From the IMG/VR virus record IMGVR_UViG_3300014159_000004: a DNA stretch of 64,000 nucleotides; one strand, given 5' to 3'. The notes under the pieces are model-generated. The model did not search any database and was not told the DNA's origin. It was given only the letters and a program-made list of their open reading frames with translations. Positions 12,911-57,069 of this stretch are shown here, piece after piece. Every line of letters starts with the position of its first letter. The first letter of the stretch is position 1. Source of the DNA: an uncultured virus (IMG/VR IMGVR_UViG_3300014159_000004). Its lineage: Duplodnaviria; Heunggongvirae; Uroviricota; Caudoviricetes. Made by a program: the position numbers and the translations under genes.

Positions 12911-12914
<4 letters not shown>
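12243..12914 (+). CDS. Cys-rich lipoprotein with DAG-rich linker (myxobacterial type)
   Basis: signal peptide with LSGC lipobox, repeated DAG/DGG/DSG, Cys-rich C-terminus. Confidence 0.75.
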
Positions 12915-18409
<5,495 letters not shown>

Positions 18410-18587
18410 TGCTTCCCTCGAACGCTTCTCTTGTCGCGAGACCTCCGAGGCGGCCCGCGCGGCCCCTCGCCTTCGAGGGGGGATCATACTCCCGATCGCG
18501 GGCGGCCCTCGTGAATTGTGCTTGCTGTCCCCGGGGGTCGAGATTCAGCGCGTTACCGCGCGCGGAAAGGCGCGTACGCTCGACGGG

Positions 18588-18962
18588 ATGGAAGTCCTAG
18601 TCGTCGAAGACGACCCCCTGCAGCGCGGGGCGATCGTCCAGGCGCTCGAGAATATGGGTCACCACGTGTGCTGGGCGGAGACCGGCGAGGGGGCGCTCGA
18701 ATTGCTGCGCACCGAGCCGGTCGACGTCGTGCTCCTCGACCTCGACCTCGGCCCCGGGATCGACGGCTGGGAGGTCGCCCGGCGCAAGCTGGCCACGCCC
18801 AAAGTGGCCCATGTCCCGGTCATCGTCGTGACGGGTCGCCCCCTCGGCGAAGTGCACGAGCAGGCCAAGAACCCGCTCGCCGGGGCCATGCTGGTCCTGG
18901 GCAAACCGACCGACCTCGTGCTCCTCGAGCGCGCGCTCGATCTGGTCGCCCGGGGCGGTTAG
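18588..18962 (+). CDS. stand-alone response regulator receiver (CheY-like)
   Basis: VLVVEDD, DVVLLDL, IDGWEVAR, PVIVVTG, KP motifs. Confidence 0.9.
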   Translation: MEVLVVEDDPLQRGAIVQALENMGHHVCWAETGEGALELLRTEPVDVVLLDLDLGPGIDGWEVARRKLATPKVAHVPVIVVTGRPLGEVHEQAKNPLAGAMLVLGKPTDLVLLERALDLVARGG

Positions 18963-19837
18963 CGCCGACGCTGGGGAGGTCGTTGCTGCGACTTCGGTGC
19001 CCCCCGACTCTCCACGCGAGACGACCGTCGAGCCTCCGCCGTCCTCTGCCAGCCGCGCGCGAGGTAGTCGTCGATGGCCTGCTCGCCGGCGGGCAGTCGG
19101 CCGACGATCGCGCGGTCGCCCGGGGCCTGCCCGTGCCAGTAGCCGCCCTGCCTCCAGACCTTCGCCTGCTCGTACTCGCCGTCGCTCGTCGGGTAGTAGA
19201 TCGTCGTGTTGGCCCCGGCGACCCTCACGTGCGTGGCGCCGCCCTCGCGTCGGGCGTGCTCGATGATCTCGGGCAAGGTCGAGAAGTCGGCGACCTGGTG
19301 ACCGCTCGGGCGGCGGTGGGCAGTCGGTCGGCGCGCCTCGCGGGCCAGCTTCGACTTGACCGCGCCCCGCAGCTCTTCACCCTGCTGCAGCACCTCGTCG
19401 GTTAGCCACGCGACGGTGCTCGGGCTCTTCAGCGCCTCGACGAAGCTGTCGAAAAACGCGCTCGTGACGTCCCGCTCCGTGATCCCGTACGTGTCCCTCA
19501 CCCACGAGGCGCTGCCGCTCTCGAACACACCCTTCGCGCCGCTCAAGTCGAGCACCTCGCGCGCACCCATCTGCCGCTTGGTGTCCCACTCGAGCTGCTG
19601 GAGCATGTTCCTGGCGGCCCGCTTCGCGCCCGCCGGGGTGTCATTCGGGAAGACGCTGCTCGGGTCGGTCGCGCGCATCCGCTCGGCCTCGACGAGTTGC
19701 TCCCAGACCCAGTCGTGGAAATGATCCCCGCCGACCTGCTCCATCGCGTAGTCGGCGCCGGCCTTGGCGGCGGCTTCGAGGATCTGCGCGCCCTCTTCTT
19801 TCGGAGAGGGTTCGCGGTTGGCCTTCTTGCGGGGCAT
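18959..19837 (-). CDS. hypothetical two-domain protein with Arg-rich linkers
   Basis: last gene of a coupled minus-strand operon; GAGGAG RBS. Confidence 0.75.
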   Translation of the reverse strand: MPRKKANREPSPKEEGAQILEAAAKAGADYAMEQVGGDHFHDWVWEQLVEAERMRATDPSSVFPNDTPAGAKRAARNMLQQLEWDTKRQMGAREVLDLSGAKGVFESGSASWVRDTYGITERDVTSAFFDSFVEALKSPSTVAWLTDEVLQQGEELRGAVKSKLAREARRPTAHRRPSGHQVADFSTLPEIIEHARREGGATHVRVAGANTTIYYPTSDGEYEQAKVWRQGGYWHGQAPGDRAIVGRLPAGEQAIDDYLARGWQRTAEARRSSRVESRGAPKSQQRPPQRRR

Positions 19838-20589
19838 CAGCGGCTCCTCGGGGGGCGGCGTGCGGGTGCTGGTTCCAGTTCCCAGTCGTAGAGCGAGTTC
19901 GGGAACGGTTTGCCGCTCTCGTCGGCGAGGTCATAGAGCGCGCTGCCGGCGTCCGAATCGAAGCCAGGGTGGTCTGCGCGACTGGTGGAGACGTGAGTGA
20001 CGACCAGTACCTGCCCACGGTATCGCTCGCCGTAGTTCTCGAGTGCATCGTCGCTCATCTGCACGCGACTGCCGACGCGGAACCGCTTGGCGAGGCGCTC
20101 GCGCAAGAATGGATTTCGGTGATGAGGTGGGTGACGAGATGTCGGTGCGCGAACGGACGACCGACGCCGCGCCGCCTCACTCACCGCACCGCGCGCCGGC
20201 TCCTCGCCCACCGCGTAGATGACCCCGTCGTCGCCGACGTAGAGCTCGAAGTCGCCGTACGACTTCGCCGCCTCGTACAGCTCGTCGTCGTGCTTCGGGA
20301 AGTTGCCGTCGCCGAACCCGGCGCCGTGGCCGTTCCTCTTGAGCCAGAAGTCGTGCCCGGCGAGCTCCCAGCGCCCCCACTTCTCGATCGCTTTCGAGTC
20401 GTCGTCCTCGATGAGCGAGCCGAAGCGCCGCTGGAAGTCGGCGCAGTCCCGGACGATCGCCGCCATCGTCTTCGCGTCGATGTCGCTCCGGTCGTAGTTC
20501 GCGTCGAGCGGCTCATCGTCGTCGTCGGACGTGCTCCAGAGCGCCGCCTCGATGTACGCGCGCGTGAAGGGGTCGAGTCTCGTCGCCAT
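19837..20589 (-). CDS. phage-type protein (AYIEAALWS...AGHDFWL.RNGHGAGF motif) plus C-terminal SH3-like domain
   Basis: motif recognisable from phage hypothetical proteins; GGAGG RBS. Confidence 0.75.
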   Translation of the reverse strand: MATRLDPFTRAYIEAALWSTSDDDDEPLDANYDRSDIDAKTMAAIVRDCADFQRRFGSLIEDDDSKAIEKWGRWELAGHDFWLKRNGHGAGFGDGNFPKHDDELYEAAKSYGDFELYVGDDGVIYAVGEEPARGAVSEAARRRSSVRAPTSRHPPHHRNPFLRERLAKRFRVGSRVQMSDDALENYGERYRGQVLVVTHVSTSRADHPGFDSDAGSALYDLADESGKPFPNSLYDWELEPAPARRPPRSR

Positions 20590-21161
20590 CACTTCCTCCC
20601 GGGCCGGCGGTGGTCGCGGGCGACTGGGCGGCGTGTGCCGCGCAGGGTCGGCCGCGGGCGGCGCTTGCTGGCCTCGCTGGGCACCCACGGCACCCCGGGG
20701 CCCCAGTTGCCCGGCTTGGCGCGCGCGGGGTACTCGCGCACGCGGCGGCGCTCCTCCACGACCCGGACGTCCTCCGCGTCCATCTGGTCGCGCACGTCGC
20801 GCTCGAGGGTCGCGAACGCGAGCGCCGCCCAGTTGACGTTCCCGTCGGTCAGGGGCGCCTCGCCGTACTCCTCGAAGTACGCGTCGTGGTGGTCACTGCA
20901 AAGGAGGACCTGGAAGTTCGCGTGCGTGTAGATGACCCAGTACGAGCCGTCGACCTCCTGGTGGACGGCGTCGTTCAGGGCGTCCTCGCTGGCGATCTCG
21001 CCCGACTTGACGCGCGCCTTGAGGTCTTCAGTGATCCCGCGGACGCCGCCGTAATACTCCTGGCGCAGGACGCGCATCGCGTCGTCGTGCTGCTGTTCCG
21101 GGTCGATGCGCGGCTCGGGGCGGGCGGGCGGGGTGCGGCGGGGCTTGGTCTTGCTGGGCAT
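20589..21161 (-). CDS. Ocr-like (T7 gp0.3-like) DNA-mimic antirestriction protein
   Basis: LKARVKSGEIASEDALNDAVHQEVDG aligns by eye with Ocr [26 protein letters not shown]; acidic core. Confidence 0.6.
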   Translation of the reverse strand: MPSKTKPRRTPPARPEPRIDPEQQHDDAMRVLRQEYYGGVRGITEDLKARVKSGEIASEDALNDAVHQEVDGSYWVIYTHANFQVLLCSDHHDAYFEEYGEAPLTDGNVNWAALAFATLERDVRDQMDAEDVRVVEERRRVREYPARAKPGNWGPGVPWVPSEASKRRPRPTLRGTRRPVARDHRRPGRK

Positions 21162-21178
21162 CTTGAAGTCTCCGTTCC

Positions 21179-22429
21179 TCAATGTTTTGTCGGCATCACG
21201 TACGCGACCCCGTCGATGACGTAACCGCCCTTGACGACGCCGCCGATCTGCCGAGCGACGCGCGCCATCGCGTCTTTACCGATGGACGCGTCCACGACGC
21301 GTGCGTCATCACGACGGGAAGACATCGCGAAGAACCAGAACTGAGCGCGATTGCCGCGGGCGTGCGCGACCGCGTCCGGCAACATGGCGTGGGCGCGCGC
21401 ACCTCTGGCTAGGAGCTGATCGACGACACTCTGAGGTTCGCGGACTCGCGACCGTCGCGACTCCTCGGTTCGAGCGGCACCGCGACGCTTCGCCCACGTG
21501 CTCGTGTCGCCGGAGGTGCCCCATGGGATCTCTTTCTGCCACCAGTCGAGCGTCTGGGCGATCTCCATGACTGTCTCTTCGGGCAGCTCCAATTGCTTGG
21601 CGACGGCGTGGACGACGTGCTCGCCGGACACCTCCTCCTCGGTGGTCGGCACGCGGCCGCCGAAGTCCGTGAGCTCGTAACCGTTCTTCTCGAGCCAGCC
21701 TTCGAGTTGCCGAACGCCGACCTCGTTCCAGAGCTTCGGGTGTTTGCCCGGCTTGATGCCGAGCGCCTGCTCCCAGCCCCTATCGACGAGGACGTCCCCG
21801 TTGACCGCCACCGCGTCGCCGAACCGCGCGATGCAGACCGCCGAGTCGGGGTCGTACCCGTCGGCCGCGATGTCGCTCAGGAGGGCGTCGCCGAGCGTGC
21901 TCCACGCCTGCGCGCCGCTGTCGTCGGCCATCCGCTCGACAGTCTCCTCGAGCGCGGAGACGATGCCGCTCTTGCCGCCGAGGTCCGCGTCGTACCGCTC
22001 CTCGGTCTCGAGCCGGGTGAGCACGAGCGGGTACTGGTCGAACTCGTGCCAGCCGTAGTGGCCGGCCCACGTTTCGTACGCGTACGCACGCTCCAGCGGA
22101 TCATTACTCACGAACGCGGCCGCGAGTTCGTCCGGATCCTGATCCGTGGTCCTTGCCACGTCTTTGATGTCGCCCCAGCTCGGCACTTCCGGGTCGAGGT
22201 CCACCCGGTAGATGGTCCAGCGCGCGTCCGGGTCGTCGAACTCGAGGTCGTCCGGCGGGATCTCGACGTACTCGACGAAGCAGTCGCCGTAGATGTCCTT
22301 CTGCTCGCCGGACTTCGGCTTCCGGCAGTAGATCGGACCGCCGTCGTACTCCGGAAAGTTCACGTCGCCGACGTCGCCGATCTGCTCGAGTTCGGGACCG
22401 TCGTCGGCTGCGACTCGGTGGCGCGTCAC
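21179..22429 (-). CDS. acidic multidomain hypothetical protein
   Basis: GTGA coupling at 22426-22429; GDVNF.EYDGG and GHYGWHEFDQYP motifs. Confidence 0.75.
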   Translation of the reverse strand: MTRHRVAADDGPELEQIGDVGDVNFPEYDGGPIYCRKPKSGEQKDIYGDCFVEYVEIPPDDLEFDDPDARWTIYRVDLDPEVPSWGDIKDVARTTDQDPDELAAAFVSNDPLERAYAYETWAGHYGWHEFDQYPLVLTRLETEERYDADLGGKSGIVSALEETVERMADDSGAQAWSTLGDALLSDIAADGYDPDSAVCIARFGDAVAVNGDVLVDRGWEQALGIKPGKHPKLWNEVGVRQLEGWLEKNGYELTDFGGRVPTTEEEVSGEHVVHAVAKQLELPEETVMEIAQTLDWWQKEIPWGTSGDTSTWAKRRGAARTEESRRSRVREPQSVVDQLLARGARAHAMLPDAVAHARGNRAQFWFFAMSSRRDDARVVDASIGKDAMARVARQIGGVVKGGYVIDGVAYVMPTKH

Positions 22430-22704
22430 GGTACCCTCCCCACCGGATTGACGGTGATCTCGAACCGCTCGAAGACGCTCGCCTCGGGGTCCTCGTTGTA
22501 CTCGTCGACGGCGTCGTCTCCGCCGTACCACTCGGCGCCCTCCTCGCTCCAGATGAGCACGTCGAGGTTGACGGGCCGGCCGTCGGACGCCCCGACCGAG
22601 ACGGCGAGGCCGGCTGCCTCGTCGAACGTCTTGAAGGTTCGCTCCTTGCCGCCCGCGTCCTCGACCGCGAACTCGACGTCGTCATGCGTCTCTTTGCGCG
22701 CCAT
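22426..22704 (-). CDS. small acidic hypothetical protein
   Basis: coupled, D/E rich. Confidence 0.75.
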   Translation of the reverse strand: MARKETHDDVEFAVEDAGGKERTFKTFDEAAGLAVSVGASDGRPVNLDVLIWSEEGAEWYGGDDAVDEYNEDPEASVFERFEITVNPVGRVP

Positions 22705-23537
22705 CAGTTGACCCTCCAGTAAACGAGACCCCCGTCGGTCGTGTACGAGTTCCCGTCATAGGACGACAGGAAGTGCGCCGGCCCGTCCACGCTCACCGCC
22801 TCCTCGGCGGCGGCGTCGACGTCGATGCCGGCGATCTCGATGGCCCTCTTGACGGCGTCCTCCTTGCCGTAGATCCCTTCGAGGTACTCCATCGGGTCCT
22901 TGAGTTCGGCCTCGGTCAGGCTGGCGGCGAGCGTCTCGATGTCCGAGTCCTCGGGCTCAGCCGGCTCGGTGGAGTAGCTGAAGTCGCCCTCGTCGTAGTC
23001 CTCGTCCGTGTTCGCCGCGACCGCGTCGTGCTTCCAGTCCTCACCCGCGTCGATGGCCTCCGACTCCGACGCGAACGTCCCAGCCAGCGTCCCCTCACCG
23101 TCCGGGCTGTCCCACTCGACGACCCACTTCTCGTCCATCCCGTCGCGCGATGCCTCTTTCCAGAAGTCCTCGGGGGTCTCGTCGCGCAATCGTTCTTCGT
23201 TACTATTTTGAACGTCGCTCTCGAGGTCGCTACGCAACCTGTCCGTGTCGATGTGCGACTCGATGAAGTTCGGCTCGAAGATCTCGGGCTGCTCTTCGAG
23301 GTCCTGCTTGACGATGGCGATGGCGAGGTCGCGCTCCGCGTCCTCGTTCTCGACCACCTGCCACTCTTTGCGACCACCACGGGTGGTGATCTCGTAGACC
23401 GTCGCGACGCCGAAGCTCGACTGTCCGCGCGCCTCCCCGATCGACAGCTCGTCCGGGTCGATGTCGAGCGCCTTGGCGACGTCCGCGAGGACCGCGTCCT
23501 CGTCGTCGAAGTCGACCTTCTTCTTGCGGGTGGCCAT
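22704..23537 (-). CDS. very acidic protein, DNA-mimic candidate (DG.AHFLSSYDG motif)
   Basis: D/E rich with short basic N-terminus; GGAG RBS. Confidence 0.75.
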   Translation of the reverse strand: MATRKKKVDFDDEDAVLADVAKALDIDPDELSIGEARGQSSFGVATVYEITTRGGRKEWQVVENEDAERDLAIAIVKQDLEEQPEIFEPNFIESHIDTDRLRSDLESDVQNSNEERLRDETPEDFWKEASRDGMDEKWVVEWDSPDGEGTLAGTFASESEAIDAGEDWKHDAVAANTDEDYDEGDFSYSTEPAEPEDSDIETLAASLTEAELKDPMEYLEGIYGKEDAVKRAIEIAGIDVDAAAEEAVSVDGPAHFLSSYDGNSYTTDGGLVYWRVN

Positions 23538-24238
23538 CAGACCCAGCTCCTCTCGATCGTGTACTCAACCTTGACGACCTTGCCGCGCTTGACCTCCGGC
23601 GTGACCGCGAGGAGATCGACGTTGCCGTGGTCGTTCACGTGGAAGACGTTCGGGAAGAAGTTCTGGTCGTTCGCCTTCTGCAGGCCCGCGATGAGAGCAG
23701 CGTCGAAGTTGCTGAACGACCCGAGGCTCTTGCCCCCCAGGGACATCGAGTATTTCCCGCCGCGCGCGTCCTTGATGATGAGGGCGTCTTCCATCTCGCT
23801 CTCGAGGTCAAAGTCGTCCTCCTCTTCCTCCTCTTCTTCCTCCTCTTCCTCCTCTTCCTCTTCTTCTTCCTCCTCCGCGGTGTCGGCCTCGATCGCCGCC
23901 CACGCCTCGTCAGCCTTCGCCTCGTCCTCGTACCAGTCGGCCTCGACGATGCCGTCCGACCGCTCGAAGAAGATGACGGCGACGCTGTCATCGAGCAGCT
24001 CTCGCTCGTCCTCGGTGAGTTCGTCCTTGTTCTCGGCGGCGACCGCCGCGACGCGCTCGCGCGTCGGCGCGTCGAGCCGCACCAGGCCGTACCAGCCCTC
24101 CCCCTCGCCGTAGCTCGCCTCCTCGTCGACGCCGTCGCCGGCGACCTCGAAGGCGAAGCTGTCGATGAGCGTGTGGAACTTGCCCGGCCCGTAGGACCGG
24201 ATGCCGTCGTCGCCCGTCTCGCGCACGATCCTCGTCAT
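23537..24238 (-). CDS. acidic protein with poly-Glu linker
   Basis: long Glu run; NDHGNV motif; GGAGG RBS. Confidence 0.75.
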   Translation of the reverse strand: MTRIVRETGDDGIRSYGPGKFHTLIDSFAFEVAGDGVDEEASYGEGEGWYGLVRLDAPTRERVAAVAAENKDELTEDERELLDDSVAVIFFERSDGIVEADWYEDEAKADEAWAAIEADTAEEEEEEEEEEEEEEEEEEEDDFDLESEMEDALIIKDARGGKYSMSLGGKSLGSFSNFDAALIAGLQKANDQNFFPNVFHVNDHGNVDLLAVTPEVKRGKVVKVEYTIERSWV

Positions 24239-24250
24239 CGCATTCCTCCG

Positions 24251-24466
24251 TCAGAACCCGATCCTGCTCACGTCAGTCAGTTGCGCGTCTTCGATGGTGA
24301 AGTCGATTTCCTCATCGTCTTCGATGCTATCGACCGCGTCCACGATGGCGTCCTGGATGGTGCCCGCATCGAGTGCTGCCTCTACGGCATCGCGCGCGCG
24401 ACTCACGTCAGGTCCGCTCACGTCGAACTCCACCGTGATCCGTAGTTTCTTAGGACCTTTCGCCAT
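24251..24466 (-). CDS. small acidic hypothetical protein
   Basis: GGAGG RBS, coupled. Confidence 0.65.
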   Translation of the reverse strand: MAKGPKKLRITVEFDVSGPDVSRARDAVEAALDAGTIQDAIVDAVDSIEDDEEIDFTIEDAQLTDVSRIGF

Positions 24467-24864
24467 CACGCCTCCCACTCGATCAGCGGCTTGATCACCT
24501 TCTTGTCGCCGACCGGCACCTGCGACGTCGAGACCCCGACCGCCTTCAGGATCTCGCGCAGGGCGTCGTACTCTTGGAGAGCCGCGTCCTCGACGTAGTC
24601 CTCCCCCGAGTCGCTCTCGACGCCCCAGAGCCCGCCGCTCGTCAGCGTCTGGGTGACGCCCTCGACGACGACCTGGGCCTCGGCGCGCACGCCGACGAAC
24701 GAGAAGTCGCCGCGCTCGTACGCCTCGCGGCGGGCCCGGTCCTGATCCCGGTACAAGTACGACGGGTCCGGGTCCTCGTCGTGCATGACGCGCACGCGGA
24801 TCGACTGCAGCTCGGGCCTGTGCCGGCTCGGCGGGACATCGACGACTCGCTTGCGAGCGCCCAT
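24466..24864 (-). CDS. phage-type hypothetical protein (RG...FVGV.A...SGGLWGVESDS motif)
   Basis: first gene of the acidic operon; GAGG RBS. Confidence 0.7.
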   Translation of the reverse strand: MGARKRVVDVPPSRHRPELQSIRVRVMHDEDPDPSYLYRDQDRARREAYERGDFSFVGVRAEAQVVVEGVTQTLTSGGLWGVESDSGEDYVEDAALQEYDALREILKAVGVSTSQVPVGDKKVIKPLIEWEA

Positions 24865-24943
24865 CGCGAAAAACCTCTCTTGTGCGGCCATCCTCGCAGG
24901 GATCTCGACCGAGCGCAAGCGGGCCTGACCACCCCTTAGCGGG

Positions 24944-25168
24944 TCACGCCCCGACGCGGTCGATCGCGAGCTTGGTGACCAGCATCGCGCCCGAGCCCGC
25001 GAGTAGGGCGCCCCAAGTCGGGGCCCGCAGGGTGTACGCCAGGAGCCCCGCCGCCGCGCCGGTCATCACCGCGGCGAGGATGGGGGTGGCGGCGGGGCCC
25101 GGGGCGTCCCCCACTCGGCCGAGTGCGAACCCGGCCACCGACCTGCCCCCGCGCGAGACGTGCTCCAT
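24944..25168 (-). CDS. small 2-TM membrane protein carrying the shared N-terminal motif
   Basis: MEHVSRGGRSVAGFALGRVGDA followed by two hydrophobic helices. Confidence 0.7.
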   Translation of the reverse strand: MEHVSRGGRSVAGFALGRVGDAPGPAATPILAAVMTGAAAGLLAYTLRAPTWGALLAGSGAMLVTKLAIDRVGA

Positions 25169-25199
25169 GGCTCGAGACTACCACGACTCCGGCGGCGAC

Positions 25200-25814
25200 T
25201 CACTCGCGCGGCAGCGTGGCGCGGGCCACTTCGGCGGCGATCTGCCGGGCGACCGCCAGCCGGTGCTGCGTCTTGACGAGCGCCGCGTCGCACCGGCCGC
25301 TCTCGACGGCCGCGAGCTCGGTGCCCTCGGGATTGTCCGCGCACCACACGCTCCGGGCCAGCCGGAGCCACCGGCGCGTGGCGAGCGAGGGGTCGCACGC
25401 CTGGTAGCGGTCGGTGTGGGCGATGGAGAGCTGCAGGTACCCCCAGCTCCTGCCGCTGTCGCCGCGCGCGCACCGGTGGTTGCCCGTCTCCCACGCCCCG
25501 TGCACGGCGATGAGCGCCATGGTCAGCGCGCGGCTCTGGTAGAGCGGGTCCATCCCGTTGACGGCGCCCACGATGGCGACGGCGATCTCGCGCGCGTCGC
25601 CGATGCGATCGTAGTGGCCGGCAGGAGGCTCGCTGGCCTGCCGGGCCAGCTCCCTCGGAGTGAGTTCGCGCTCCGGGACCCGAGCCATCGCGGCGAGCAC
25701 CTCGTCCACGGTCACGAGGTCCGCCGCCGGCGGCGACGCGTGGGCGGGCGTCCGCCCGACGAGCGTCATGGTGACCAGTACAGCGGCTTGAACGAGCGAT
25801 TGTTTCAGGTTCAT
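25200..25814 (-). CDS. secreted lytic transglycosylase-like protein
   Basis: signal peptide; WETG...GDSGRSWGYLQ resembles SLT catalytic motifs. Confidence 0.6.
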   Translation of the reverse strand: MNLKQSLVQAAVLVTMTLVGRTPAHASPPAADLVTVDEVLAAMARVPERELTPRELARQASEPPAGHYDRIGDAREIAVAIVGAVNGMDPLYQSRALTMALIAVHGAWETGNHRCARGDSGRSWGYLQLSIAHTDRYQACDPSLATRRWLRLARSVWCADNPEGTELAAVESGRCDAALVKTQHRLAVARQIAAEVARATLPRE

Positions 25815-25871
25815 CCAAACCCCTCTACCGTTTGAGCCCGGTCTAGGGCAAGCTATCTCTTCAGTAAGGCC

Positions 25872-26156
25872 ATGCCGGACGTCCCGCTCGCCGACACGTG
25901 CGTCTGCGGGGTCCCGCACTGGCACAAGTTCATCGCTCCCTCCGAGAAGCTGGCCAAGGGCGGCTCGGGCTCGATGTCCGCCGCGACGCCGTTTCTCTGG
26001 TGCCGCAAGTGCGGGTGCCTTCGCTTCATGCTCGAGTCGCACTGGCAGGTGCCGCTCGACCGCGCGGGCGACGTCGCGCACTCGGTGCCGCTCAGCGAGG
26101 AGCCCGACGAGCCGCCGACGAGTCCGGGCACCCCGGGCGCGAAGGGGCGCCGCTAG
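25872..26156 (+). CDS. small Cys/His zinc-binding protein
   Basis: CVCG..H..H and CRKCGC..F motifs. Confidence 0.6.
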   Translation: MPDVPLADTCVCGVPHWHKFIAPSEKLAKGGSGSMSAATPFLWCRKCGCLRFMLESHWQVPLDRAGDVAHSVPLSEEPDEPPTSPGTPGAKGRR

Positions 26157-26866
26157 CCGACGGGCAGCGGGACGTACGTCGCCGGGTACCATAGGCGCGC
26201 GCGGTCGTCGCCGGCGGCCACGACCGCCGCCGCGTTCTGCAGCATCAGCACCTCGCCGAGGTCGCGCGCGACGATCCCCGGGTTGACCTTCTCCTCGTGC
26301 GCGCTGGCCTCGCGCACCAGGTCCGCGGCCGCCGAGAAGTCCGGCGGGTCCGCGGCGAATAGCGCCTTGAACGCCGCGCCGTAGCCGACGCCCGCGGCGG
26401 TTTTACCGATCTTGTCCCACACGTTCGCGAAGTAGCTGCCCCACGCCCAGGCCGAGGACAGCAACATCAGCTGCGCGTCGGCCGGCAGCGTCGGGGCGCC
26501 CGGGTACTGCGCGACCAGGTACCCCCAGTCCTCGGCGACCGTCTGGTCGATGAGCCCCGTGATGGCCGCCGCGGTCAGCCGGATCGTCGTGAGCTTGGCG
26601 CACGCGGTCGACTGCACGCCCGGCCACGCGGCCTTGACGAGCGCGTACGCGGCGTCGACTTCTGCCTTCGTGCACGGCGACCCATTCTCAGGGTGGTACC
26701 AGGCGAGGGCGTCGGCGGCGGCCGCGGAGAAGAGCGCGTTGCCGGTCGCGCAGGTCACGACACCTTTGATGTCCGTGTACATGTATGGCAAACGCTGGCC
26801 TTCGAATTTGGCGAAGAGCACCGGCAACTGGTCGACGACCTCCTGCTGCAAGCCGGTGACGATCAT
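26153..26866 (-). CDS. lysozyme-fold (GH24-like) muramidase, paralog of 51511..52392
   Basis: FEG...YMYTDIKGVVT..G catalytic E/D/T spacing; PADAQL....AWAWG. Confidence 0.7.
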   Translation of the reverse strand: MIVTGLQQEVVDQLPVLFAKFEGQRLPYMYTDIKGVVTCATGNALFSAAAADALAWYHPENGSPCTKAEVDAAYALVKAAWPGVQSTACAKLTTIRLTAAAITGLIDQTVAEDWGYLVAQYPGAPTLPADAQLMLLSSAWAWGSYFANVWDKIGKTAAGVGYGAAFKALFAADPPDFSAAADLVREASAHEEKVNPGIVARDLGEVLMLQNAAAVVAAGDDRARLWYPATYVPLPVG

Positions 26867-26924
26867 GGGTATCAAACTGTAGCACTTGCGCGGAACGCGC
26901 GATCGTGCGATCAGTCTTTGCCCC

Positions 26925-27110
26925 GTGGCGCGTCGCACAAAACCCGAGCCGCTGACCCTCACGGCCTTTCGGGCGCAGCCCGGCGAATACGTGCGTGAGG
27001 TGGCGCGTGCCGGCAAGCGCTACCTCCTGACCAAGGCCGGCAAGCCCGTGGCGCTGCTCGTGCCGGCGGGTGAACTCGAAGACGGTCGGCTGACGAGAGA
27101 GACCCCATGA
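26925..27110 (+). CDS. Phd/YefM-family antitoxin-like protein
   Basis: LTAFRAQPGEYVREV....YLLTKAGKPVALLVP. Confidence 0.8.
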   Translation: MARRTKPEPLTLTAFRAQPGEYVREVARAGKRYLLTKAGKPVALLVPAGELEDGRLTRETP

Positions 27111-27787
27111 CCCTGAAGATCTTCATCGGCTCGCCCTGCTACGACTCCATGGAGCCGGAGTTCGTCGGCTCGCTGCTCGCGTCGATGGACGCCCTGCACG
27201 ACCGCGGGCACGAGCTCTGCGATTGGGGGTACGTTCGGGGCACGCTCCCGCACTTCGCGCGCAACACGCTGGCGTTCGAGGCGCTGAGCGAGGGGGCCGA
27301 CGTCATGGTGCAGGTCGACACCGACCACCAGTGGAAGTCGGGCGACCTGGTCGCGGCGATCGAGTGCGTGGGCGCGGGCCGCGTGGACGTCGTCGGCTTC
27401 GCGCACGTCACGCGCAGCGACAGCACGCTCGGCGGCGACCCGTTCGTGTCGCCCAAGATGCTGCCGGAGAAGTCGCTGCGCGCGATTCGGCACGAGGGCG
27501 TCGTCTACGTCGAGGTCCGCGCGGTCGGCGCCGGCGTGCTCGTAGCGTCCCGGCGGTGCCTCGAGCGGCTCGCTGAAGGGGCGCCGAAGGACAAGCGCGG
27601 CCAGCCGAAGCTCTTCATGATGCCGGACGAGACCGGCGAGGACGTCTACTTCTGCCAGCAGTGGCAAAAGCTCGGCGGCAGGATCTACTGCCACCGGGAC
27701 GCGATCGTGGCGCACATCGGCAAGACGACGTTCGCGGCGAGCTTCCAGCTCGCCATCCGGGACATGCTGATCGAGATCGCGGAGTGA
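27107..27787 (+). CDS. GT2-like glycosyltransferase
   Basis: ARNTL, QVDTD, VGAGVLV.SR, GEDVYFC, HIG motifs. Confidence 0.8.
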   Translation: MTLKIFIGSPCYDSMEPEFVGSLLASMDALHDRGHELCDWGYVRGTLPHFARNTLAFEALSEGADVMVQVDTDHQWKSGDLVAAIECVGAGRVDVVGFAHVTRSDSTLGGDPFVSPKMLPEKSLRAIRHEGVVYVEVRAVGAGVLVASRRCLERLAEGAPKDKRGQPKLFMMPDETGEDVYFCQQWQKLGGRIYCHRDAIVAHIGKTTFAASFQLAIRDMLIEIAE

Positions 27788-36229: not shown

Positions 36230-36697
36230 ATGACCCAGCAACAGCATCCGAACGACCTGCCCATCCTCCCCGTGGAGCATGAGATACCCCAACCGGATCC
36301 GGACGCCACGATCCTGATCCGGCTGGCCACCCACTCGCTCGCCATTGGCGCGAGCGCCAGCCCCGAACCCATGGCCTGGGTCATGAGCCAGCAGCACCCG
36401 CTCGTCCGCACAGCGAAGATCGTGCGGATGTACCTGCGCGAGGACGGCGGGGTCGACGTGTACTGGAGCGACGGCAAGATGTACCTGCGCACGTTCATCC
36501 CGGAGCGCGCCATCATCTTCTTCGAGGAGATCATGAGCAAAGACACCTTCGTCGCGTTTATCGAGCAAGCCGAGACCGAGACCGAGTCCGAAGAGGAGGA
36601 AGAGGATCAGGGACAGGACGAGCCCGAGCCTGCGGGTCAGGTGACCGCCCCGATTCCGGACCCGAGCGAGCCGGGGCCGACGGGTCCCTCGGCGTAA
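36230..36697 (+). CDS. hypothetical protein with acidic C-terminus
   Basis: GGAG RBS; GC3 bias. Confidence 0.7.
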   Translation: MTQQQHPNDLPILPVEHEIPQPDPDATILIRLATHSLAIGASASPEPMAWVMSQQHPLVRTAKIVRMYLREDGGVDVYWSDGKMYLRTFIPERAIIFFEEIMSKDTFVAFIEQAETETESEEEEEDQGQDEPEPAGQVTAPIPDPSEPGPTGPSA

Positions 36698-36711
36698 AGG
36701 GAGGTCGACGA

Positions 36712-38703
36712 ATGCCGACCGGAGACGAGCCCGAGGATGTCGAAGAGGACGTCGAGGACGAGGACGACAGCGATGACGAGGAGGGCGGCGACGCTGGCAG
36801 CGGAGACGACGACACCATCGAGTCGGACGGTCAGCGGCTTGTCCGGCTCGACCGGCGCCGGCGCATCGCCGCCGCGCCGTCGGACCTCGCCCCGACCTCG
36901 ACCCGGGACTCGCGCGCGTCACCAAGACCGCCCGCGCCCACGCCTCGGGTCACCGCCAACCCGACCCGCCGTCGACCCAAGAAGAAGAAGCGCCCCACCG
37001 AACCCGCCGCGAACCCCACGCCCGTGACCAACCACACAGCACCTCCGCCGCCCCAACCTCCCGCTCCGGCGGCCCCGGCGCCCCCCGCCGCGAGCGCGGC
37101 GGAGGGCAACGTCTTTCTTGCGTTCGAGGAGACGGTCAAACTGCACCCGGCTGCGTCGCACACGATCGCGGTCGTCCGCAAGAGCGGCACCCCGGCGCAG
37201 TGGATGATCGCCGACCGGCCGCGCACGGCCAACGAGCTGTACGCCGCGATCCTGAGGATCCACGGGCGCAGCCCGGAGACCACCTACGAGGTCACCTTCC
37301 GCGACGGGGCCGGGCACGGCAACGGCGGCGAGGTCTCGATGCCGAGCACGGTGGACCAGCCCGGCGCGCCCATGGCGCCTGCGCCAGCGTACCCGTCGCC
37401 GCCGCAACCGCAGTACGCGCAGCCGCCGTACGCGCCGCAGTACCCGCCGCCCGCGGTCGCCGCCCCAGTCGCGCCGCAGGCCCAGCCGGGCACCCCGTTC
37501 GACGCGATGCTGGCGATGCAGAAGCAGCTCTTCGAGATGGTGAACGCGATGGCGCCGAAGCCGGTCGCCGCCCCGCCGGCGCCGCCCGCTCCACCCCAGC
37601 AGCCGCCCGCGCCGGACATCAACGCGCTGCTCGCGATGCAGAAGCAGATGTTCGACATGATCCAGGCGCTGCAGGCCCCCGTCGGCGGTTCCGCCGCTCC
37701 GCCGCCGGCGCCACCCCCGCCGCAGCAGCAGGCGCCCGCACCCGCCGCCGCTCCGGATCCGATGAGCGCGATGCTCGCGATGCAGAAGCAGGTGTTCGAC
37801 ATGATGCAGGCGCTGCAGACCGGACACCCGCCGCCGGCTCCGGCTCCTGCGCCGCCCACACCTGCGCCTGCGCCGCCTACCGACCCGACCGGCGCGATGC
37901 TCGCGATGCAGAAGCAGATGTTCGACATGATGCTCACGATGATGCAGACGGCCCAGCGAGGGGCTGCCCCGGCGGGGCCTGCCGGCCCGTACAGGCGCTA
38001 CGACCCGCGCGACCCGCGCGACCCCCGCGATCCGGGCGATCCCAGCGCGCCGCCGTACGCGCGGCCGCCCTACCCGCCGTCGCCGCAGCGGCCGCAGACG
38101 CCGACCGAGCAGCTGCAGGACGCGGTCAGGGTCGTGCGCTCGACCGTGGAAATCGCGCGCGAGTTCGCCGAGGGGTTCGGCGGTCGCGCGGCCGAGCCGG
38201 CGCCGCCGCCCGTCGACGATGACGACGACAGCCCCGTGAAGGTCATCGACATGGGCCTGGCCAAGAGCGTCATCAACCGGAGCGACGGGACCCTGCGCGG
38301 CTTCGAGACGGCGATGGCCAACCTGCCGAGCGCCCTCAAGTGGTGGGGCGAGCAGCAGGAGAAGATCCGCTCCGCGAGGGCGGAGGCCGAGGAGCGAAGG
38401 CGCCAGCAGCAGCTGCCCCCTGGGTACGTGGTGGCGACGCCGGACTACCAACCCCCGGAGGGGTTCGTCGCCGTCCCGGTCTGCAAGCACGGGCGCCCCG
38501 TCGTGGAGTGTCCCGACGAGCGGTGCCGCGCGGGGCTGAGGCAGGCTGCGCCGGCGCAGCCGGTCGCCGCCCCGCTGCCGGAGCCGCCGGCCGAGATGCC
38601 GCCGCCGATCGCCCAGCGCGAGCCGGTCCGGCCGGTCGCTGAGAGTGAGGGGACGGGACCGACGTCGTGGGGCATGCCGCCCGGGATCCCACAGAAACAG
38701 TAG
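36712..38703 (+). CDS. Pro-rich low-complexity protein with four LAMQKQxF[DE]M repeats
   Basis: GGGAGG RBS; 663 aa ORF. Confidence 0.8.
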   Translation: MPTGDEPEDVEEDVEDEDDSDDEEGGDAGSGDDDTIESDGQRLVRLDRRRRIAAAPSDLAPTSTRDSRASPRPPAPTPRVTANPTRRRPKKKKRPTEPAANPTPVTNHTAPPPPQPPAPAAPAPPAASAAEGNVFLAFEETVKLHPAASHTIAVVRKSGTPAQWMIADRPRTANELYAAILRIHGRSPETTYEVTFRDGAGHGNGGEVSMPSTVDQPGAPMAPAPAYPSPPQPQYAQPPYAPQYPPPAVAAPVAPQAQPGTPFDAMLAMQKQLFEMVNAMAPKPVAAPPAPPAPPQQPPAPDINALLAMQKQMFDMIQALQAPVGGSAAPPPAPPPPQQQAPAPAAAPDPMSAMLAMQKQVFDMMQALQTGHPPPAPAPAPPTPAPAPPTDPTGAMLAMQKQMFDMMLTMMQTAQRGAAPAGPAGPYRRYDPRDPRDPRDPGDPSAPPYARPPYPPSPQRPQTPTEQLQDAVRVVRSTVEIAREFAEGFGGRAAEPAPPPVDDDDDSPVKVIDMGLAKSVINRSDGTLRGFETAMANLPSALKWWGEQQEKIRSARAEAEERRRQQQLPPGYVVATPDYQPPEGFVAVPVCKHGRPVVECPDERCRAGLRQAAPAQPVAAPLPEPPAEMPPPIAQREPVRPVAESEGTGPTSWGMPPGIPQKQ

Positions 38704-42761: not shown

Positions 42762-45700
42762 ATGGGTCTCTACGCGCACCGCCTCGCCGAACTCTCCGCT
42801 GCGCGCGAGCGCGCCGGACGGCGCGCACCGGTGCGCCCGAGTGGACCTACAGACCGCCGCCGCCCGTACGCGCCGCCGCGCCGCGACAGCCGCGCCGCGC
42901 CGCGCCGGCACGACGTGCGCATCGGCACCGTCATCCCGAGCACCTACGTCCCGCCTCCCCCGCCACCGCCGGACACCTACGTCGAGGCCAAGCGCAAGTC
43001 TGCGATGCAGACCCAGTCGCTGCTCTTCAGTCGCGCCGACGGCTGGACCGAGAGCAAGGCGAAAGAGTGGGCGAAGGAGCACGGGTACAAGTCGAACAAG
43101 GTGGACGTCACCGACCAGTACATCCGCCTGCGCCAACTCGACCCGAAGAAATTCACTGTCAAGCGGACAGTTCCGTTTGGCAAGGGCATCCGCGCCGTAG
43201 TCGCTCGTGAGGAACCAATGCCGACCAAGAAGAAGAAGTCGACCCGTCGTCCCGCAGCCAAGCGCACCGCCGCCAAGCGCAAGCCCGCGCCGCGCAAGCA
43301 CGCGGTGAAGCCCAAGTCGGCTCCGAAGCGGTCGGCCGCGCGCAAGCGCTCCAAGAAGGCGACGGTCGTCGCCGCGCGCCGGCGCCCGCGCATGGCCCGC
43401 GAGGTCGGTCGGGTCGTGGCCGCGAAGCGGCGCCCGGCGCGCCGCGTGCGCGAGGTCCGGGCGGCCGCCGAGGCGCGCCGGCGCAAACCTCGCGTGCGCG
43501 AGGTCCCGGTGGTCGCCGAGGCGAAGCGCAAGCCGGCCAGCTACGTGATGGCCAAGCGCCGCCCCGCGCCCAAGCGCCACCGGGCCGCCAAGCACAAGGT
43601 GCAGGCGTGGTTCGGCGACAGCGCGGGTCACAGCAAGGCCGCGAAGAAGGGCTGGAAGACGCGCAAGGGCCACAAGGCCAGCAAGGTGACCCGCAAGGCC
43701 GCCGAGTCGCGCCGCCGCCCGAAGAAGCACCACCGCGTCCGCGAGACGATGACCGTCCAGGCGCGCCGGCGCCCGAAGAAGCACCACCGCGCCCGCGAGA
43801 CGATGACCGTCCAGGCGCGTCGTCGCCCGAAGAAGCACCACCGCGCCCGCGAGACGATGACCGTCCAGGCACGCCGCCGTCCGAAGAAGCACCACCTCGC
43901 CCGCGAGGCGTCGTCGGTGGTCCGCTCGAAGGCGCGCCGCAGCTACGTCCGCGCGCCGAGCATGCGCAGCATCGGGCGATCGGCGCTCGACATGGGACTC
44001 GAGCTCGGGCTCGGGGTCGCCGGCTACCTGCTCGCCGACGGCGTCGACCGCTTCCTCGCGACCTACGACCCGGCCAACGCGGCCAAGGCCGGCCCGAACA
44101 AGTTCACCTCGGACGGCACGGGCATGCTGGGCAACTCGCTCAACGTCGCCTCGGCGCCCGACTGGAAGCGCTACGCCAGCCTCGTCGGGCTGACGCTCAT
44201 GCCGCTCGGCGGCTCGCTCTTCATCGAGAACAAGACGATCCGCTCCTCGGTGGAGGGGATCGGTCTCGGCGCCGGCATCAAGCTGGCGACGACGCTCTGG
44301 GAGAGCCTGCTGATGCCGCTGCTCGTCGGCAAGGACACGAGCGCGCCAGCCCTGCAGAAGAGCTGGGTCGCGCGCCTGTACCCCGCCGAGGTCTCGGCGG
44401 CCCTCAACGAGAAGGCCGGGAAGGCCGCGGTCTCGAGCGGCGGCGCCAACAGCACGGCCGGCACGCTCTCGGGCGGCGCCGATCGCGATGCGGGCCCGTT
44501 CGCGCTCGCCGGTCGCTTCGACCACGGTCGCGGCGGTCGCGAGTGGGTGAGGCCCAACCAGTGGCAGATGCCGGACGTGCCGGTGTACGACCCGAACGCG
44601 GTCGTCGTCGATCCGGACGCGGTCCCGGTCGCCGTCCAGCCGGCGTGGCCCGCGCACTTCGGCGAGCGGCACCGCTGGGGCCTGCGCGGCGTCGGCGACG
44701 CGGTGCAGGACGTGGCGCAGACCATCGCGGCGCAGACCGGCGTGCACCCGGCGCACGCCGTCAACGCGGCGATGCACGTGGCCGGCGAGCCGCACGACAT
44801 CACGCAGGCGCTCCGACGCGCGCTGCCGCACATCCGCCGCGAGATCCTGGCCGAGTGTGCCCGGCACGTGCACCCGCACGTGGTCCGGATGCACGGCCAC
44901 GCCCGCCACCCGCGCGAGCACGCCGAGTGGGAGGGCGAGCGGGCTGCCGAGGGCTTCCCGCCGCCCGCGCACGACGCACCGGAGCATGAGTGGCGCGAGT
45001 GGCACGGCAAGCGCGCGGCCGCGGACCTGCCCGCGGCTCCGCCCCCGCCCGAGCCGCCGGCCGCTGCCCCACGGACGCCGGAGCACCTGCGCACTCGGAG
45101 TGAGTGGCAGCCGAAGTCCGACCGCACGATCACCTTCGAACGGTTCGCGACCACCCAGCAGGCGCTGGGGATCGGCGGACCGGGAGGCCCCGCCGCGAGC
45201 GGCTACCCGGGCCAGCCGGGTCTCGGCTGCCTCGGCGACGCCTTCGCCGACGCAGCGCAGAGCGCGGCGGCCACCATCCCGGACATGCCGCTCGAGAACG
45301 CGGTCAACGTGGCGGCCCACGCGGCGACCGAGCCGTTCAGCTGCGACCGAGCGATCGAGCGCGCGATGCCGTTCGTCCGCCGCGAGCTCACCCGAGCCTG
45401 CGCGGAGAACATGACCCCGTACATCCGCCAGTTGACCGGGATCCCGCTCCCGCCCGAGGCTGCGGCCCCGCCGCCTCCGCCGCCGGGCGCGCCCGAGCTG
45501 CCCGCGCCGCCGGCGCCGCCGGTCATCGAGTTCGTGCCGTCGCCGCCTCCGCCGAGCTGGACCCGCTCGGAGGCGGAGTGGCACGACGAGGAGCGTCGCA
45601 ACTGGGACCGCACGCACGGCGGTCACGCCGTCGTGGCGGCCGCGACGCACGCGGCCGAGGCTGCGGCCGCACCGCACCCCGACGCGCAGAAGCCCGCCGT

Positions 45701-46100: not shown

Positions 46101-46198
46101 GAAGCTCGCAAAAAACCAACGACCCCTAGCGAAGAAGCAACAACCAACTCCCCGCGGCGGACCAAGGAAACGGCGGGGAAGCGAAAGAGAGAACGACC

Positions 46199-47587: not shown

Positions 47588-48187
47588 ATGCAGCCGAAAA
47601 GCGAGAACGTCCGGGACCTGGCGATTTGGGCGCCGAAGATCGCCTACGCGATGGTGGTCGGGGTCCCGCGCGTCCCGTTCGTCGTCGACATCCCGATCCA
47701 GTTCACGTCGAGCGTCGTCGATGCGCCGTACATCGAGGCGAGCTTCGACAACAACCTCACGCAGGACACGCTTGTCGAGAAGATCGCGTTCACGCTCTTC
47801 CAGCAGAACTCGTTTCCTGGGAGCCCGTTCCAGAGCCTGTACTTCAACCAGTTGAAGGGGCAGACGGGCGTCGGCGTGAAGTTCGATGTCTACGGGGCGC
47901 CCCGCTACAGCGTGCAGGACACACCGATCGACCTCGCGAACATGGCCGACGTCCTGGCCGTCACGTGGCCCAACGGCTGGCCGCTCCCGAAGCAGTCGAA
48001 CGTCAAAGTGTCGGCCGTCCTGTTCCAGACGCCGGTGAGCGTACCTTTCGACGTCAACATAACTTTCCTCGGTTGGAGTGCGTTGGACGCGGAAATTGAC
48101 TCACTCTCGGACGACGATGCGCGCTGCCGGCTGCGCAAGCTCGGATTCGAGGTCCCGGACCTGGAAGTTCTTCTGACCAGGCCGTGA
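47588..48187 (+). CDS. beta-rich putative structural protein (minor capsid candidate)
   Basis: GGAGGAG RBS; alternating hydrophobic strands. Confidence 0.55.
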   Translation: MQPKSENVRDLAIWAPKIAYAMVVGVPRVPFVVDIPIQFTSSVVDAPYIEASFDNNLTQDTLVEKIAFTLFQQNSFPGSPFQSLYFNQLKGQTGVGVKFDVYGAPRYSVQDTPIDLANMADVLAVTWPNGWPLPKQSNVKVSAVLFQTPVSVPFDVNITFLGWSALDAEIDSLSDDDARCRLRKLGFEVPDLEVLLTRP

Positions 48188-51501: not shown

Positions 51502-51510
51502 CGGGGACCC

Positions 51511-52392: not shown

Positions 52393-52712
52393 ACCGCTCC
52401 GGCAAGTCCAGCCTCTCCGCGTTCAAGTGCCCGCTGTGCGGGTGCTCGGAGTGGGGATCCAGCTACAACTTCGACGGGCCCGGCGACACGCCGGCCGACC
52501 CGAAGGCGACGGGGCTCGACCAGGGCGGCCGGTCGGCGCGGTTCGAGGGGACGTTCACGCGGCACTGCCACGGCTACGTCCCCGCTCCCGACGGCAGCGG
52601 CTACAAGTCGTGCGGCTACAAGTGGAACTCGAAGGACGACGCGAAGCACGGGGTCGAGCCGCCGTCGCAGAAGAGCGTGCACGGCTGGACGCCGCCGAAG
52701 GTGCCGTCGTGA
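52389..52712 (+). CDS. small zinc-ribbon protein
   Basis: CPLCG ... CHG ... CGYKW. Confidence 0.65.
   Translation: MNRSGKSSLSAFKCPLCGCSEWGSSYNFDGPGDTPADPKATGLDQGGRSARFEGTFTRHCHGYVPAPDGSGYKSCGYKWNSKDDAKHGVEPPSQKSVHGWTPPKVPS

Positions 52713-54099: not shown

Positions 54100-57069
<2,970 letters not shown>

Follow-up and report, generated by a model that had tools for sequence, protein, structure and literature searches.

On the minus strand of a 64,000-nucleotide stretch of DNA from an uncultured virus (IMG/VR record IMGVR_UViG_3300014159_000004, Caudoviricetes), which we refer to as the window, nine co-oriented genes at positions 18959-24864 make up a conserved, translationally coupled accessory operon that encodes a string of small acidic domains. 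Short arginine-rich peptides join or follow several of these domains, and they recur in tandem in a very basic repeat protein encoded on the plus strand within the structural gene cluster of the phage (the 42762 protein). These tags are more than an outcome of chance or of guanine plus cytosine (GC) bias, and their best-supported interpretation is that they are polybasic spacers that serve as functional short linear motifs marking every domain of the operon set. A preliminary description of the locus had taken the nine products for DNA-mimic-like proteins, tethered to the genome or core by cleavable basic tags shared with the 42762 protein and delivered on infection. The sharing of the tags has turned out to be a real and conserved feature at the peptide level, borne out by enrichment and by homologues; cleavage, virion packaging and an anti-defence function are what we infer from it.

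Composition of the operon

The nine genes, numbered here g1 to g9, encode 1,953 amino acids in total. Six of their eight junctions overlap by 1-4 nucleotides, the remaining two being spacers of 12 and 17 nucleotides, and the starts are preceded by GGAGG-like ribosome-binding sites. Gene coordinates and translations confirm both the nine minus-strand genes and the basic N-termini that had been listed for them. The proteins have a summed net charge of -170, or -8.7 per 100 residues compared with +1.1 for the 84 other predicted phage proteins, and seven of the nine have isoelectric points (pI) of 4.05-5.23. The exceptions, g7 (pI 8.7) and g9 (pI 9.1), are net basic because of their tails only. 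Over residues 2-9 the mean charge is +1.9 in the nine proteins and +0.14 in the 84 others, whose starts were crudely called (Mann-Whitney p=0.004).

All nine genes lie on the minus strand. The first, g1 (24466-24864), encodes 132 residues with a pI of 4.9 and the leader MGARKRVVD; it weakly matches phrog_5644 (E=0.0017), and its orthologues in the related loci L002, L016-L020, L023 and L026 are 45-69% identical. For g2 (24251-24466; 71 residues, pI 4.05, leader MAKGPKK), no family was found in Pfam, PHROGs or NCBIfam, and no tblastn match in the relatives that were fetched. The g3 protein (23537-24238; 233 residues, net charge -46) consists of the leader MTRIVRE, an N-domain (GIRSYGPGKF...), a run of 19 Glu at residues 122-140 and a C-domain. 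It is followed by g4 (22704-23537; 277 residues, net -52) and g5 (22426-22704; 92 residues, pI 4.1, leader MARKE), the latter with orthologues of 64-73% identity in L002, L003 and L026. Gene g6 (21179-22429; 416 residues, GTG start) encodes three domains, an N-domain at about residues 13-165, a middle domain at about 143-322 and a C-domain at 333-416, with the linker TEESRRSRVREP ahead of the last. The g7 protein (20589-21161; 190 residues) joins an acidic core (residues 18-133, net -15) to a basic tail (134-190, net +13). In g8 (19837-20589; 250 residues), an N-domain (residues 1-130, phrog_1915) is followed by a linker, a C-domain (phrog_34111) and a tail ending in RRPPRSR. Finally, g9 (18959-19837; 292 residues) has the leader MPRKKANRE, an N-domain, a linker beginning LAREARR, a C-domain (VADF..GATHV..YYP..GYWH) and the tail TAEARRSSRVESRG...RRR. 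Searches of the nine proteins against Pfam, PHROGs and NCBIfam returned PHROG families of unknown function, a weak ocr match and little else, and in a blastn comparison of the operon with cultured phages the poly-Glu codon run alone was matched.

The arginine-rich tags

The linkers and tails quoted in the preliminary description for four of the proteins are all present on the minus strand. They are T-E-E-S-R-R-S-R-V-R-E-P in g6 (21434-21469); V-V-E-E-R-R-R-V-R-E-Y-P in g7 (20727-20762), where it opens the tail; V-S-E-A-A-R-R-R-S-S-V-R-A-P in g8 (20143-20184); L-A-R-E-A-R-R-P-T-A-H-R-R-P-S-G-H-Q between the domains of g9 (19295-19348); and T-A-E-A-R-R-S-S-R-V-E-S-R-G...R-R-R at the C-terminus of g9 (18962-19042, net +7). 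Those of g6, g7 and g8 are bipartite. In all five window linkers A/V/T/G-x-E stands ahead of A/S-R-R, a motif that is low in information.

The proposed check by motif enrichment came out in favour of the tags. The pattern E[AES]{1,2}RR occurs at five sites in the nine proteins, compared with 0.38 +/- 0.63 expected from 5,000 composition-preserving shuffles (P=2e-4), and its rate of 2.56 per 1,000 residues is thirteenfold that in the rest of the genome (0.19). A bipartite motif, defined as E-[AES]-R-R followed within at most nine residues by [VA]-R-[AE], has five matches in 150 open reading frames (ORFs) filtered by codon bias (41,367 residues), compared with 0.48 expected from shuffles; one match each is in g6, g7 and g8, and two are in the protein of the ORF at 42741/42762. 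Arginine makes up 8.2% of the nine proteins and 10.7% of the remaining proteome. The copies of the tag are encoded by differing codons, which therefore points to selection at the level of the peptide, and a DNA-level repeat as the source of the tags is ruled out on the same ground. Internal translation starts after the linkers were also considered and rejected, as only g7 has one (GAGGAG, 9 nucleotides, GTG); in the proteins other than g7 the position after the linker holds a conserved hydrophobic residue, V, I or M. The shuffle excess, the lower Arg content, the differing codons and the untagged homologues from phages of GC-rich hosts, described below, together place the tags beyond GC bias.

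One part of the basic C-termini does have a simpler origin. The embedded Shine-Dalgarno sequence of the next gene puts AGG, a rare codon for Arg, 3-4 codons ahead of the upstream stop, giving the ends E-R-S-W-V-stop, W-R-V-N-stop, G-R-V-P-stop, G-R-K-stop and P-R-S-R-stop. These occur in g3, g4, g5, g7 and g8, with the sites at 19837-19850, 20589-20602, 22426-22440, 22704-22718 and 23537-23552 on the minus strand, and the counterparts in L002 and L003 have the same pattern.

The 42762 protein and other tagged structural-cluster proteins

The 42762 protein (42762-46100, plus strand; its ORF opens at 42741) begins with a conserved N-domain of about 70 residues, followed by about 260 residues of basic units, the sequence VRAPS, a hydrophobic region and an Ala/Pro-rich C-terminus. 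The tandem basic unit has the form (T)EARRRPKK..R(A/V)RE(T). In the super-basic repeat region (43188-43970, plus strand), two bipartite tags are accompanied by another three units, ARRRPKKHH(R/L)ARE, at 43700-43900, the first two of which are followed by TMTVQ. The 58 homologues of the protein are built alike, with 3-6 repeats of units such as ATEARRRKRRRHKAREAAPV; one homologue is named 'DNA-binding protein HU-beta' in its source, probably owing to its basic low-complexity sequence. The family is present in all four complete high-GC relatives that have the tagged operon; in the low-GC relative, whose sequence is 84% complete, no member was found. Immediately downstream of the 42762 gene is 46130-47494, which among the genes of the conserved block is the best conserved in comparison with G004, a complete relative of 124.6 kb (84% identity), and is a plausible candidate for the capsid gene.

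Two further proteins of the structural gene cluster share the grammar of the tags with the 42762 protein, as had been described. The 52709 protein (52709-53761, plus strand) is a multidomain protein with the linkers LREIGESRR and RLEARRQMRR. Its domains recur in operon proteins of the relatives, the GARVRYNYTDGP... domain matching the C-terminus of a 542-residue protein of L026. In the 50216 protein (50216-51157, plus strand), AVVRAPRAP lies close to the N-terminus, and a hydrophobic segment and the tail AAEARRGAQYGRERRR are also present. The word reported for the RadC-like protein is also there, as SSRRRRVRD, but it is a poorer match than the others.

Conservation and domain shuffling among relatives

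The g8 N-domain (about 125 residues, phrog_1915) offers the broadest view of the tag outside the window. It has 352 homologues at E ≤ 0.001, which include stand-alone proteins of 137-150 residues and many fusions. Among the 48 of 119 homologues examined that have at least 25 residues after the domain, 18 have E[AS]R within 40 residues past it, and by reading most of the remaining extensions hold E-x-R variants such as VNERRQ, VSEVRR and VREGRR. In 83 segments outside the N-domain, taken from 76 of the 119 homologues, EARR is the top enriched four-residue word, occurring in 17 segments compared with 1.3 expected, counts that kinship inflates; AREA, RSAH, VRAP, VNEA and NEAR come next, and the EARR motif adjoins many different neighbouring domains. 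Homologues from unrelated phages had been predicted to lack the tag, and this was seen in all four of the cultured-phage homologues examined (Caulobacter RB23, Acinetobacter ABPH49, Mycobacterium Manda and Gordonia Flapper), which stop at the end of the domain and carry no basic tag. Mycobacterium and Gordonia are GC-rich hosts.

Comparison of the nine proteins with 40 related loci by tblastn showed that the operon is a conserved yet domain-shuffled string of small domains, and what had first been described for the window extends to a whole clade. The gene order g1 - g3N - g4 - (g5) - g6mid - ... - g8N - ... - g9C ... g9N is found in L016, L018/L019, L020, L023 and L026, and L002 and L003 have partial versions. 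The g6 N-domain stands alone in L002-L005 and the middle domain in L016, L020, L023 and L026. The N- and C-domains of g3 are separately encoded in L016, the C-domain elsewhere, and those of g9 are separate genes in reversed order in L016, L018, L020, L023 and L026. The modules of L016 and L026 include multidomain proteins of 313-553 residues, in which x-E-A-R-R is present at nearly every domain junction and most C-termini (ASEAGRRR, VGEARPRGRR, VDEARREQ, VAEARHIG, LAHEARRHH and SANEARRPILRPRP are examples); many of these C-termini are Arg/Pro-rich tails that open with the same form. The 7 kb on either side of the operon are hardly conserved between relatives.

In stand-alone genes, the leader matches the distal half of a linker: in L016 the orthologue of the g9 C-domain starts MTRRRPSRRPLRSPHHRVADF, and the window g9 has ...EARRPTAHRRPSGHQVADF. 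Orthologue leaders end in Glu at conserved places, as in (A/R)RE-P of g9, MTRIVRE-T and MAKAE-GIR of g3, and RKRVVE-A of g1, where the leaders read M-T-x-RKRVVE-A and that of the window RVVD. A g3 counterpart internal to a polyprotein has the leader KKTAAE-GIR. Such polyproteins occur in the low-GC relatives L044 and L045 (47-50% GC), which encode the same domains in single ORFs (L044:168-4484 and L045:7-4362) of 1,438 and 1,451 residues with net charges of -104 and -111. They contain the g8 N-domain, the g3 N-domain, many small domains and zinc ribbons, and their junctions are Lys-based, e.g., KKTAAE-G and KTASRDE-E. The junction motif K-T-A-x-E, chosen post hoc, is weakly enriched in them (5 and 6 compared with about 1.8 expected). 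A g4 homologue lies about 2.5 kb downstream of these ORFs.

Individual domains: g7, g4 and the g8 N-domain

Whether the acidic domains are DNA mimics can be asked most directly of g7. T7 Ocr (gp0.3) is a DNA mimic that inhibits type I restriction and acts also on BREX. Two Ocr entries are the sole PDB matches to the g7 sequence (phmmer E=0.08, g7 44-132 to Ocr 16-101), and Ocr is also the top match of the g7 family profile (E=0.18, Ocr 11-116 of 117). The match of g7 to Pfam ocr (PF08684) has E=0.032 and 15.1 bits, under the 25-bit cut-off. Within the g7 family, which has 718 cluster representatives at E ≤ 0.001, 4 of 145 members match Pfam ocr at E ≤ 0.01, the best at E=5.1e-4, and the ESM Atlas gave no usable match for g7. 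The g7 protein is predicted to form a homodimer with an ipSAE of 0.73, compared with 0.02 for the best control, although this score may reflect memory of Ocr; of proteins with solved structures, 20 of 30 determined as pairs reached this mark, as did 1 of 23 determined as single chains. In the model the partner has a pLDDT of at least 91, and agreement between the runs is at least 100% of contacts. The g7 core is thus probably an Ocr-like dimeric DNA mimic; a remote kinship of g7 with Ocr is credible, and anti-restriction is the best guess for its function. The description of all nine proteins as DNA-mimic-like does not stand as it was given, for the Ocr signal is found in g7 alone, below the family threshold, and acidity is the one property behind the label for the other eight.

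The most conserved member of the operon is g4, with 369 homologues, the best 120 of which are 43-100% identical over nearly the full length. It has invariant D251, G252 and H255 and, near the C-terminus, the motif D-x-D-G-x-x-H-F-L-S-x-Y-D-G. No match to g4 was found in cultured phages. The g8 N-domain (20200-20589, with conserved AGHDFWLTRNGHGAGFWDGDWP) occurs in 157 cultured-phage records from hosts including Mycobacterium, Caulobacter, Escherichia and others, and is always annotated as hypothetical; one homologue carries PF18823, which we take to be InPase. Structure prediction had been suggested as a check on mimicry; the models of these two are confident, and neither shows a known fold. 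The AlphaFold2 model of g4 has a pLDDT of 91.6, and that of g8 about 97 over residues 1-130 and below 60 over the linker and C-domain. With Foldseek, neither model matched the PDB at E ≤ 0.001. The best VIA-align results were Z 6.0 over 52 residues at 3.0 Å for g4 and Z 4.4 over 65 residues at 3.4 Å for the g8 N-domain, both within the range that the tool calls common. In BFVD, g4 matched uncharacterised phage proteins only, and in the ESM Atlas unnamed viral clusters below 0.8. The profiles A1 and A2 and the 46130 protein, when searched against PDB sequences, drew no credible match (Gasdermin-B, ananain and antibody chains, E 0.05-0.4). The g8 N-domain is widespread as an accessory domain of phages, and judging from its model the fold may be new. 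For both g4 and the g8 N-domain, an enzyme or specific binder fits better than a generic mimic, because they combine strong conservation and conserved polar motifs with no known fold.

Possible processing and packaging, and alternative explanations

How could acidic domains and basic spacers work together? We propose tentatively, as a reading that is quite possible though short of probable, that the operon encodes packaged, processed accessory proteins in which the spacers act as targeting-and-processing signals. Each domain, fused or standing alone, has a short basic leader in front and a lineage-specific polybasic spacer behind, with the signature small-x-E-[A/S]-R-R ... [V/A]-R-[A/E]-(P), and tandem copies of the same unit occur in the super-basic part of the 42762 protein. 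In the proposed scheme the spacers would bind the acidic domains, during head assembly, either to the basic core protein or to DNA. Cutting at A/V/T-x-E by a maturation protease specific for Glu would follow, on the pattern of T4, phiKZ and SPN3US, and the domains so released would leave the head together with the DNA and act early. The match to prohead-protease processing is suggested by the form of the spacers (small-x-Glu, then Arg-Arg), by their position and by the polyprotein versions. As to position, they fall at domain borders modelled with low confidence and in leaders of 5-20 residues; the single border that was modelled, residues 131-160 of g8, has low pLDDT. By analogy with these phages, cleavage after Glu is plausible. 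A bolder form of the proposal, which we consider unlikely, is a capsid-loading code, in which excisable polybasic spacers would be common to a protamine-like core protein and to a shuffled set of effector domains that are acidic. Through the spacers the effectors would be tethered to the core or to DNA; excision after Glu would then leave DNA-condensing peptides and free effectors for injection, and any small domain could in this plug-and-play manner become virion cargo.

Several findings weigh against packaging and processing. A protease of the T4 gp21 type (PF03420, S77) had no match in the phage genome (G000), although the controls of that search were silent too; one of the HK97 type (PF04586, S78) had none in a search with working controls, and the HK97 capsid (PF05065) was not found in the genome. 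The sole protease-like gene of the phage, an S49/ClpP-like 'SDH' protease outside the window (G000:C1:72159-73172), is ruled out as a conserved processing enzyme, being present in none of five relatives. The small-x-E pattern holds so little information that resemblance to known cleavage sites, taken by itself, is a weak argument. Arg/Pro-rich tails as long as about 50 residues persist in stand-alone proteins, and such tails are therefore suggested to act in their own right, beyond providing cut sites. The operon lies outside the conserved structural block, between variable flanks, and common descent confounds its co-occurrence with the 42762 family. In many tails the final 3-4 residues are dictated by the embedded Shine-Dalgarno sequences, an explanation that reaches nothing further upstream. 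As for function, sequence, profile and structure searches gave no detectable link of g4 or the g8 N-domain to anti-defence families, and the Ocr match of g7 is under the Pfam cut-off, with an hhalign probability of 11% over 59 columns.

Some of these observations would be expected if the nine products were cytoplasmic accessory proteins for host takeover or anti-defence that are never packaged, their basic segments being uncleaved, disordered and with a function of their own, such as binding nucleic acid or the ribosome, masking acidic surfaces until the target is met, or controlling turnover. This we regard as rather unlikely, if a serious competitor. It agrees with the location of the operon beyond the conserved structural block, with the flanks that vary between relatives, with the very long Arg/Pro-rich tails kept by stand-alone proteins, with genome searches that identified no maturation protease, and with the g8 N-domain being a widespread stand-alone accessory protein. 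However, it leaves unexplained why the tandem unit appears in the 42762 protein, beside the best-conserved gene of the structural cluster, why two further proteins of that cluster are tagged, and why leaders end in Glu at conserved positions of orthologues.

The roles of the two components could also be reversed, with the basic peptides as the cargo: spacers and 42762 repeats would be excised to serve the packaged DNA as protamine-like counter-ions, and the acidic domains would mostly be charge-neutralising pro-pieces or scaffold, later discarded. The 42762 family, with by reading about 300 residues of Glu-bounded, strongly positive tandem units of about 18 residues, lends itself to such a role, and the charges of acidic domains and basic segments are comparable (-15/+13 in g7, -17/+7 in g8 and -6/+4 in g9). 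We nevertheless find this improbable, considering that the acidic domains are individually well conserved, as the identities within g4 illustrate, that the g8 N-domain occurs untagged in unrelated phages, and that the g7 core resembles Ocr, domains of this kind having functions of their own. Lastly, the tags might be by-products of GC composition and gene overlap with no dedicated function. The genome has a GC content of about 70%, and the AGG of embedded GGAGG-like sites does give -R-x-x-stop ends in g3, g4, g5, g7 and g8 and in L002 and L003. This explanation is largely refuted, and we give it very little credence: the shuffles fall far below the observed counts for both motifs (0.38 and 0.48 compared with 5), the nine proteins are poorer in Arg than the proteome, homologues in phages of high-GC Mycobacterium and Gordonia are untagged, and the motif is conserved with different codons while the embedded sites account for the last 3-4 residues only.

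If the spacers are indeed a targeting-and-processing code, they would flag the proteins that this lineage injects along with its DNA and would provide a sequence rule for spotting virion-delivered effectors in metagenomes, as well as a second natural portable capsid-loading tag after the T4 capsid-targeting sequence. Independently of any such code, the operon exposes a pool of uncharacterised small domains as candidates for anti-defence screens, among them the g8 N-domain (157 cultured-phage records), g4 (369 homologues) and the Ocr-like g7 family (718 representatives).

The phage and the remainder of the window

The IMG/VR virus record has 117,319 bp and is 100% complete according to CheckV; its first 63,442 bases correspond to positions 559-64000 of the window, and positions 1-558 lie outside it. 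According to one source, the contig that encodes the g4 and 42741 proteins is 148,905 bp long, and the virus record may be a provirus excised from a longer contig. The record encodes an integrase (G000 65265-66182), several toxin-antitoxin pairs, a Dam methylase, a UvrD-type helicase, a RadC-like protein, a Fic protein and two collagen-like fibre proteins; no tRNA genes were found in it, and no Pfam or PHROG model of a terminase, portal, capsid or HK97/T4-type protease matched. Because an integrase and its companions are present and no model of a head gene matched, we place it as a temperate phage of about 117 kb from a poorly charted, uncultured high-GC lineage. The hints of a host are limited to two contigs of metagenome-assembled genomes with a g4 homologue, assigned to Polyangiaceae and Phycisphaeraceae; the host is possibly a Myxococcota bacterium.

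The S49/ClpP-like gene adjoins an IS1-like transposase fragment and a SocA/Panacea antitoxin and is probably an accessory gene rather than a head protease. The collagen-like fibre proteins, with G-x-T repeats, are encoded at 12911-18487 (minus strand, 1,858 residues) and 54100-57069 (plus strand, 989 residues), and in these stretches the opposite strand and other frames hold long spurious ORFs. Between g9 and the first fibre gene, a gene for a receiver domain (response regulator REC; 18366-18962, plus strand), unusual for a phage, converges on the end of the operon. A scan of 18000-27500 found no promoter-like sites and terminator-like sites at chance level. Elsewhere in the window, a GIY-YIG homing endonuclease gene (48100-49272, plus strand) sits between genes of the conserved structural block, apparently as an insertion, and has no match in G004 (tblastn E ≤ 1e-5). 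The genes at 26153-27019 (minus strand), upstream of the operon, and 51502-52392 (plus strand), in the structural block, are apparent paralogues that match the same G004 gene with 30% and 69% identity, respectively. The ORF at 36283-38703 (plus strand) looks scaffold-like, combining an acidic stretch with Pro/Ala-rich sequence in which AMLAMQKQ(L/M/V)F(E/D)M occurs four times; its call is uncertain owing to a competing ORF of 1,061 residues on the opposite strand.

Comparison with known systems

A precedent for a packaged accessory protein with a removable leader is found in T4, where, in the part of the literature cited here (PMC9026906), capsid-targeting sequences of 10-20 residues are described as being removed after Glu and the injected IPI as an inhibitor of restriction. 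The operon resembles T4 IPI-III and Alt, as far as that source covers them, in encoding small accessory proteins with short leaders that end in Glu, here basic, 5-20 residues long and conserved in orthologues. Unlike the T4 internal proteins, which are described as basic, the present domains are acidic; the tag here also trails each domain and joins domains to one another, and its grammar, E-A-R-R...V-R-A/E-P, is different. Moreover, no gp21-type protease was found here, in a search that lacked a working control.

In the phages SPN3US and phiKZ, an AXE and an SXE motif, respectively, are reported in the portion of PMC5694885 used here, with propeptides that are often cut at several sites. Many of their head-internal proteins, among them inner-body and ejection proteins, are cut after Glu at small-x-E sites of the form S/A/G-x-E or A-x-E, and the linkers in the window have A/V/T/G-x-E followed by A/S-R-R. 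Those phages have genomes of 240-280 kb, an identified protease (gp175 or gp245) and long propeptides, whereas the present phage is temperate, with about 117 kb and no protease found, and the polybasic spacers that it carries recur in a repeat protein. With T7 Ocr the comparison concerns g7 alone. The g7 core is acidic (net -15 over 116 residues), aligns over most of Ocr and is predicted to form a symmetric homodimer; in contrast to Ocr, g7 adds a basic tail of 57 residues, and its scores are below significance.

The polyvalent proteins, found in phages and conjugative elements and predicted to be packaged and sometimes processed in the sections of Iyer et al. 2017 (PMC5512222) relied on here, combine several unrelated conflict-type domains per polypeptide and are extensively shuffled. 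Two or more shuffled domains per polypeptide are likewise found in g6 (three), g8 (two), g9 (two) and the polyproteins of the relatives, which reach 1,451 residues. None of the polyvalent marker domains (MuF, zincin-like peptidase, ART, ArdC-N, ParB-like and others) was found in the nine proteins at Pfam E ≤ 0.1, where their sole matches are the weak ocr and PRP1_N, and the low-GC polyproteins have zinc ribbons only. In contrast to the polyvalent proteins, the string is here largely split into coupled genes. The word 'linker' has no occurrence in PMC5512222, and the tag motif itself was not searched for in the literature. P1 DdrB is processed before packaging, according to the same portion of that article, and the Dar proteins of P1 are alike in concept only, as antirestriction proteins packaged in the head and injected; they differ in being large. 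On balance, the system is best filed with the packaged, processed accessory (or polyvalent) proteins of phages, among which it would be set apart by a distinct spacer grammar.

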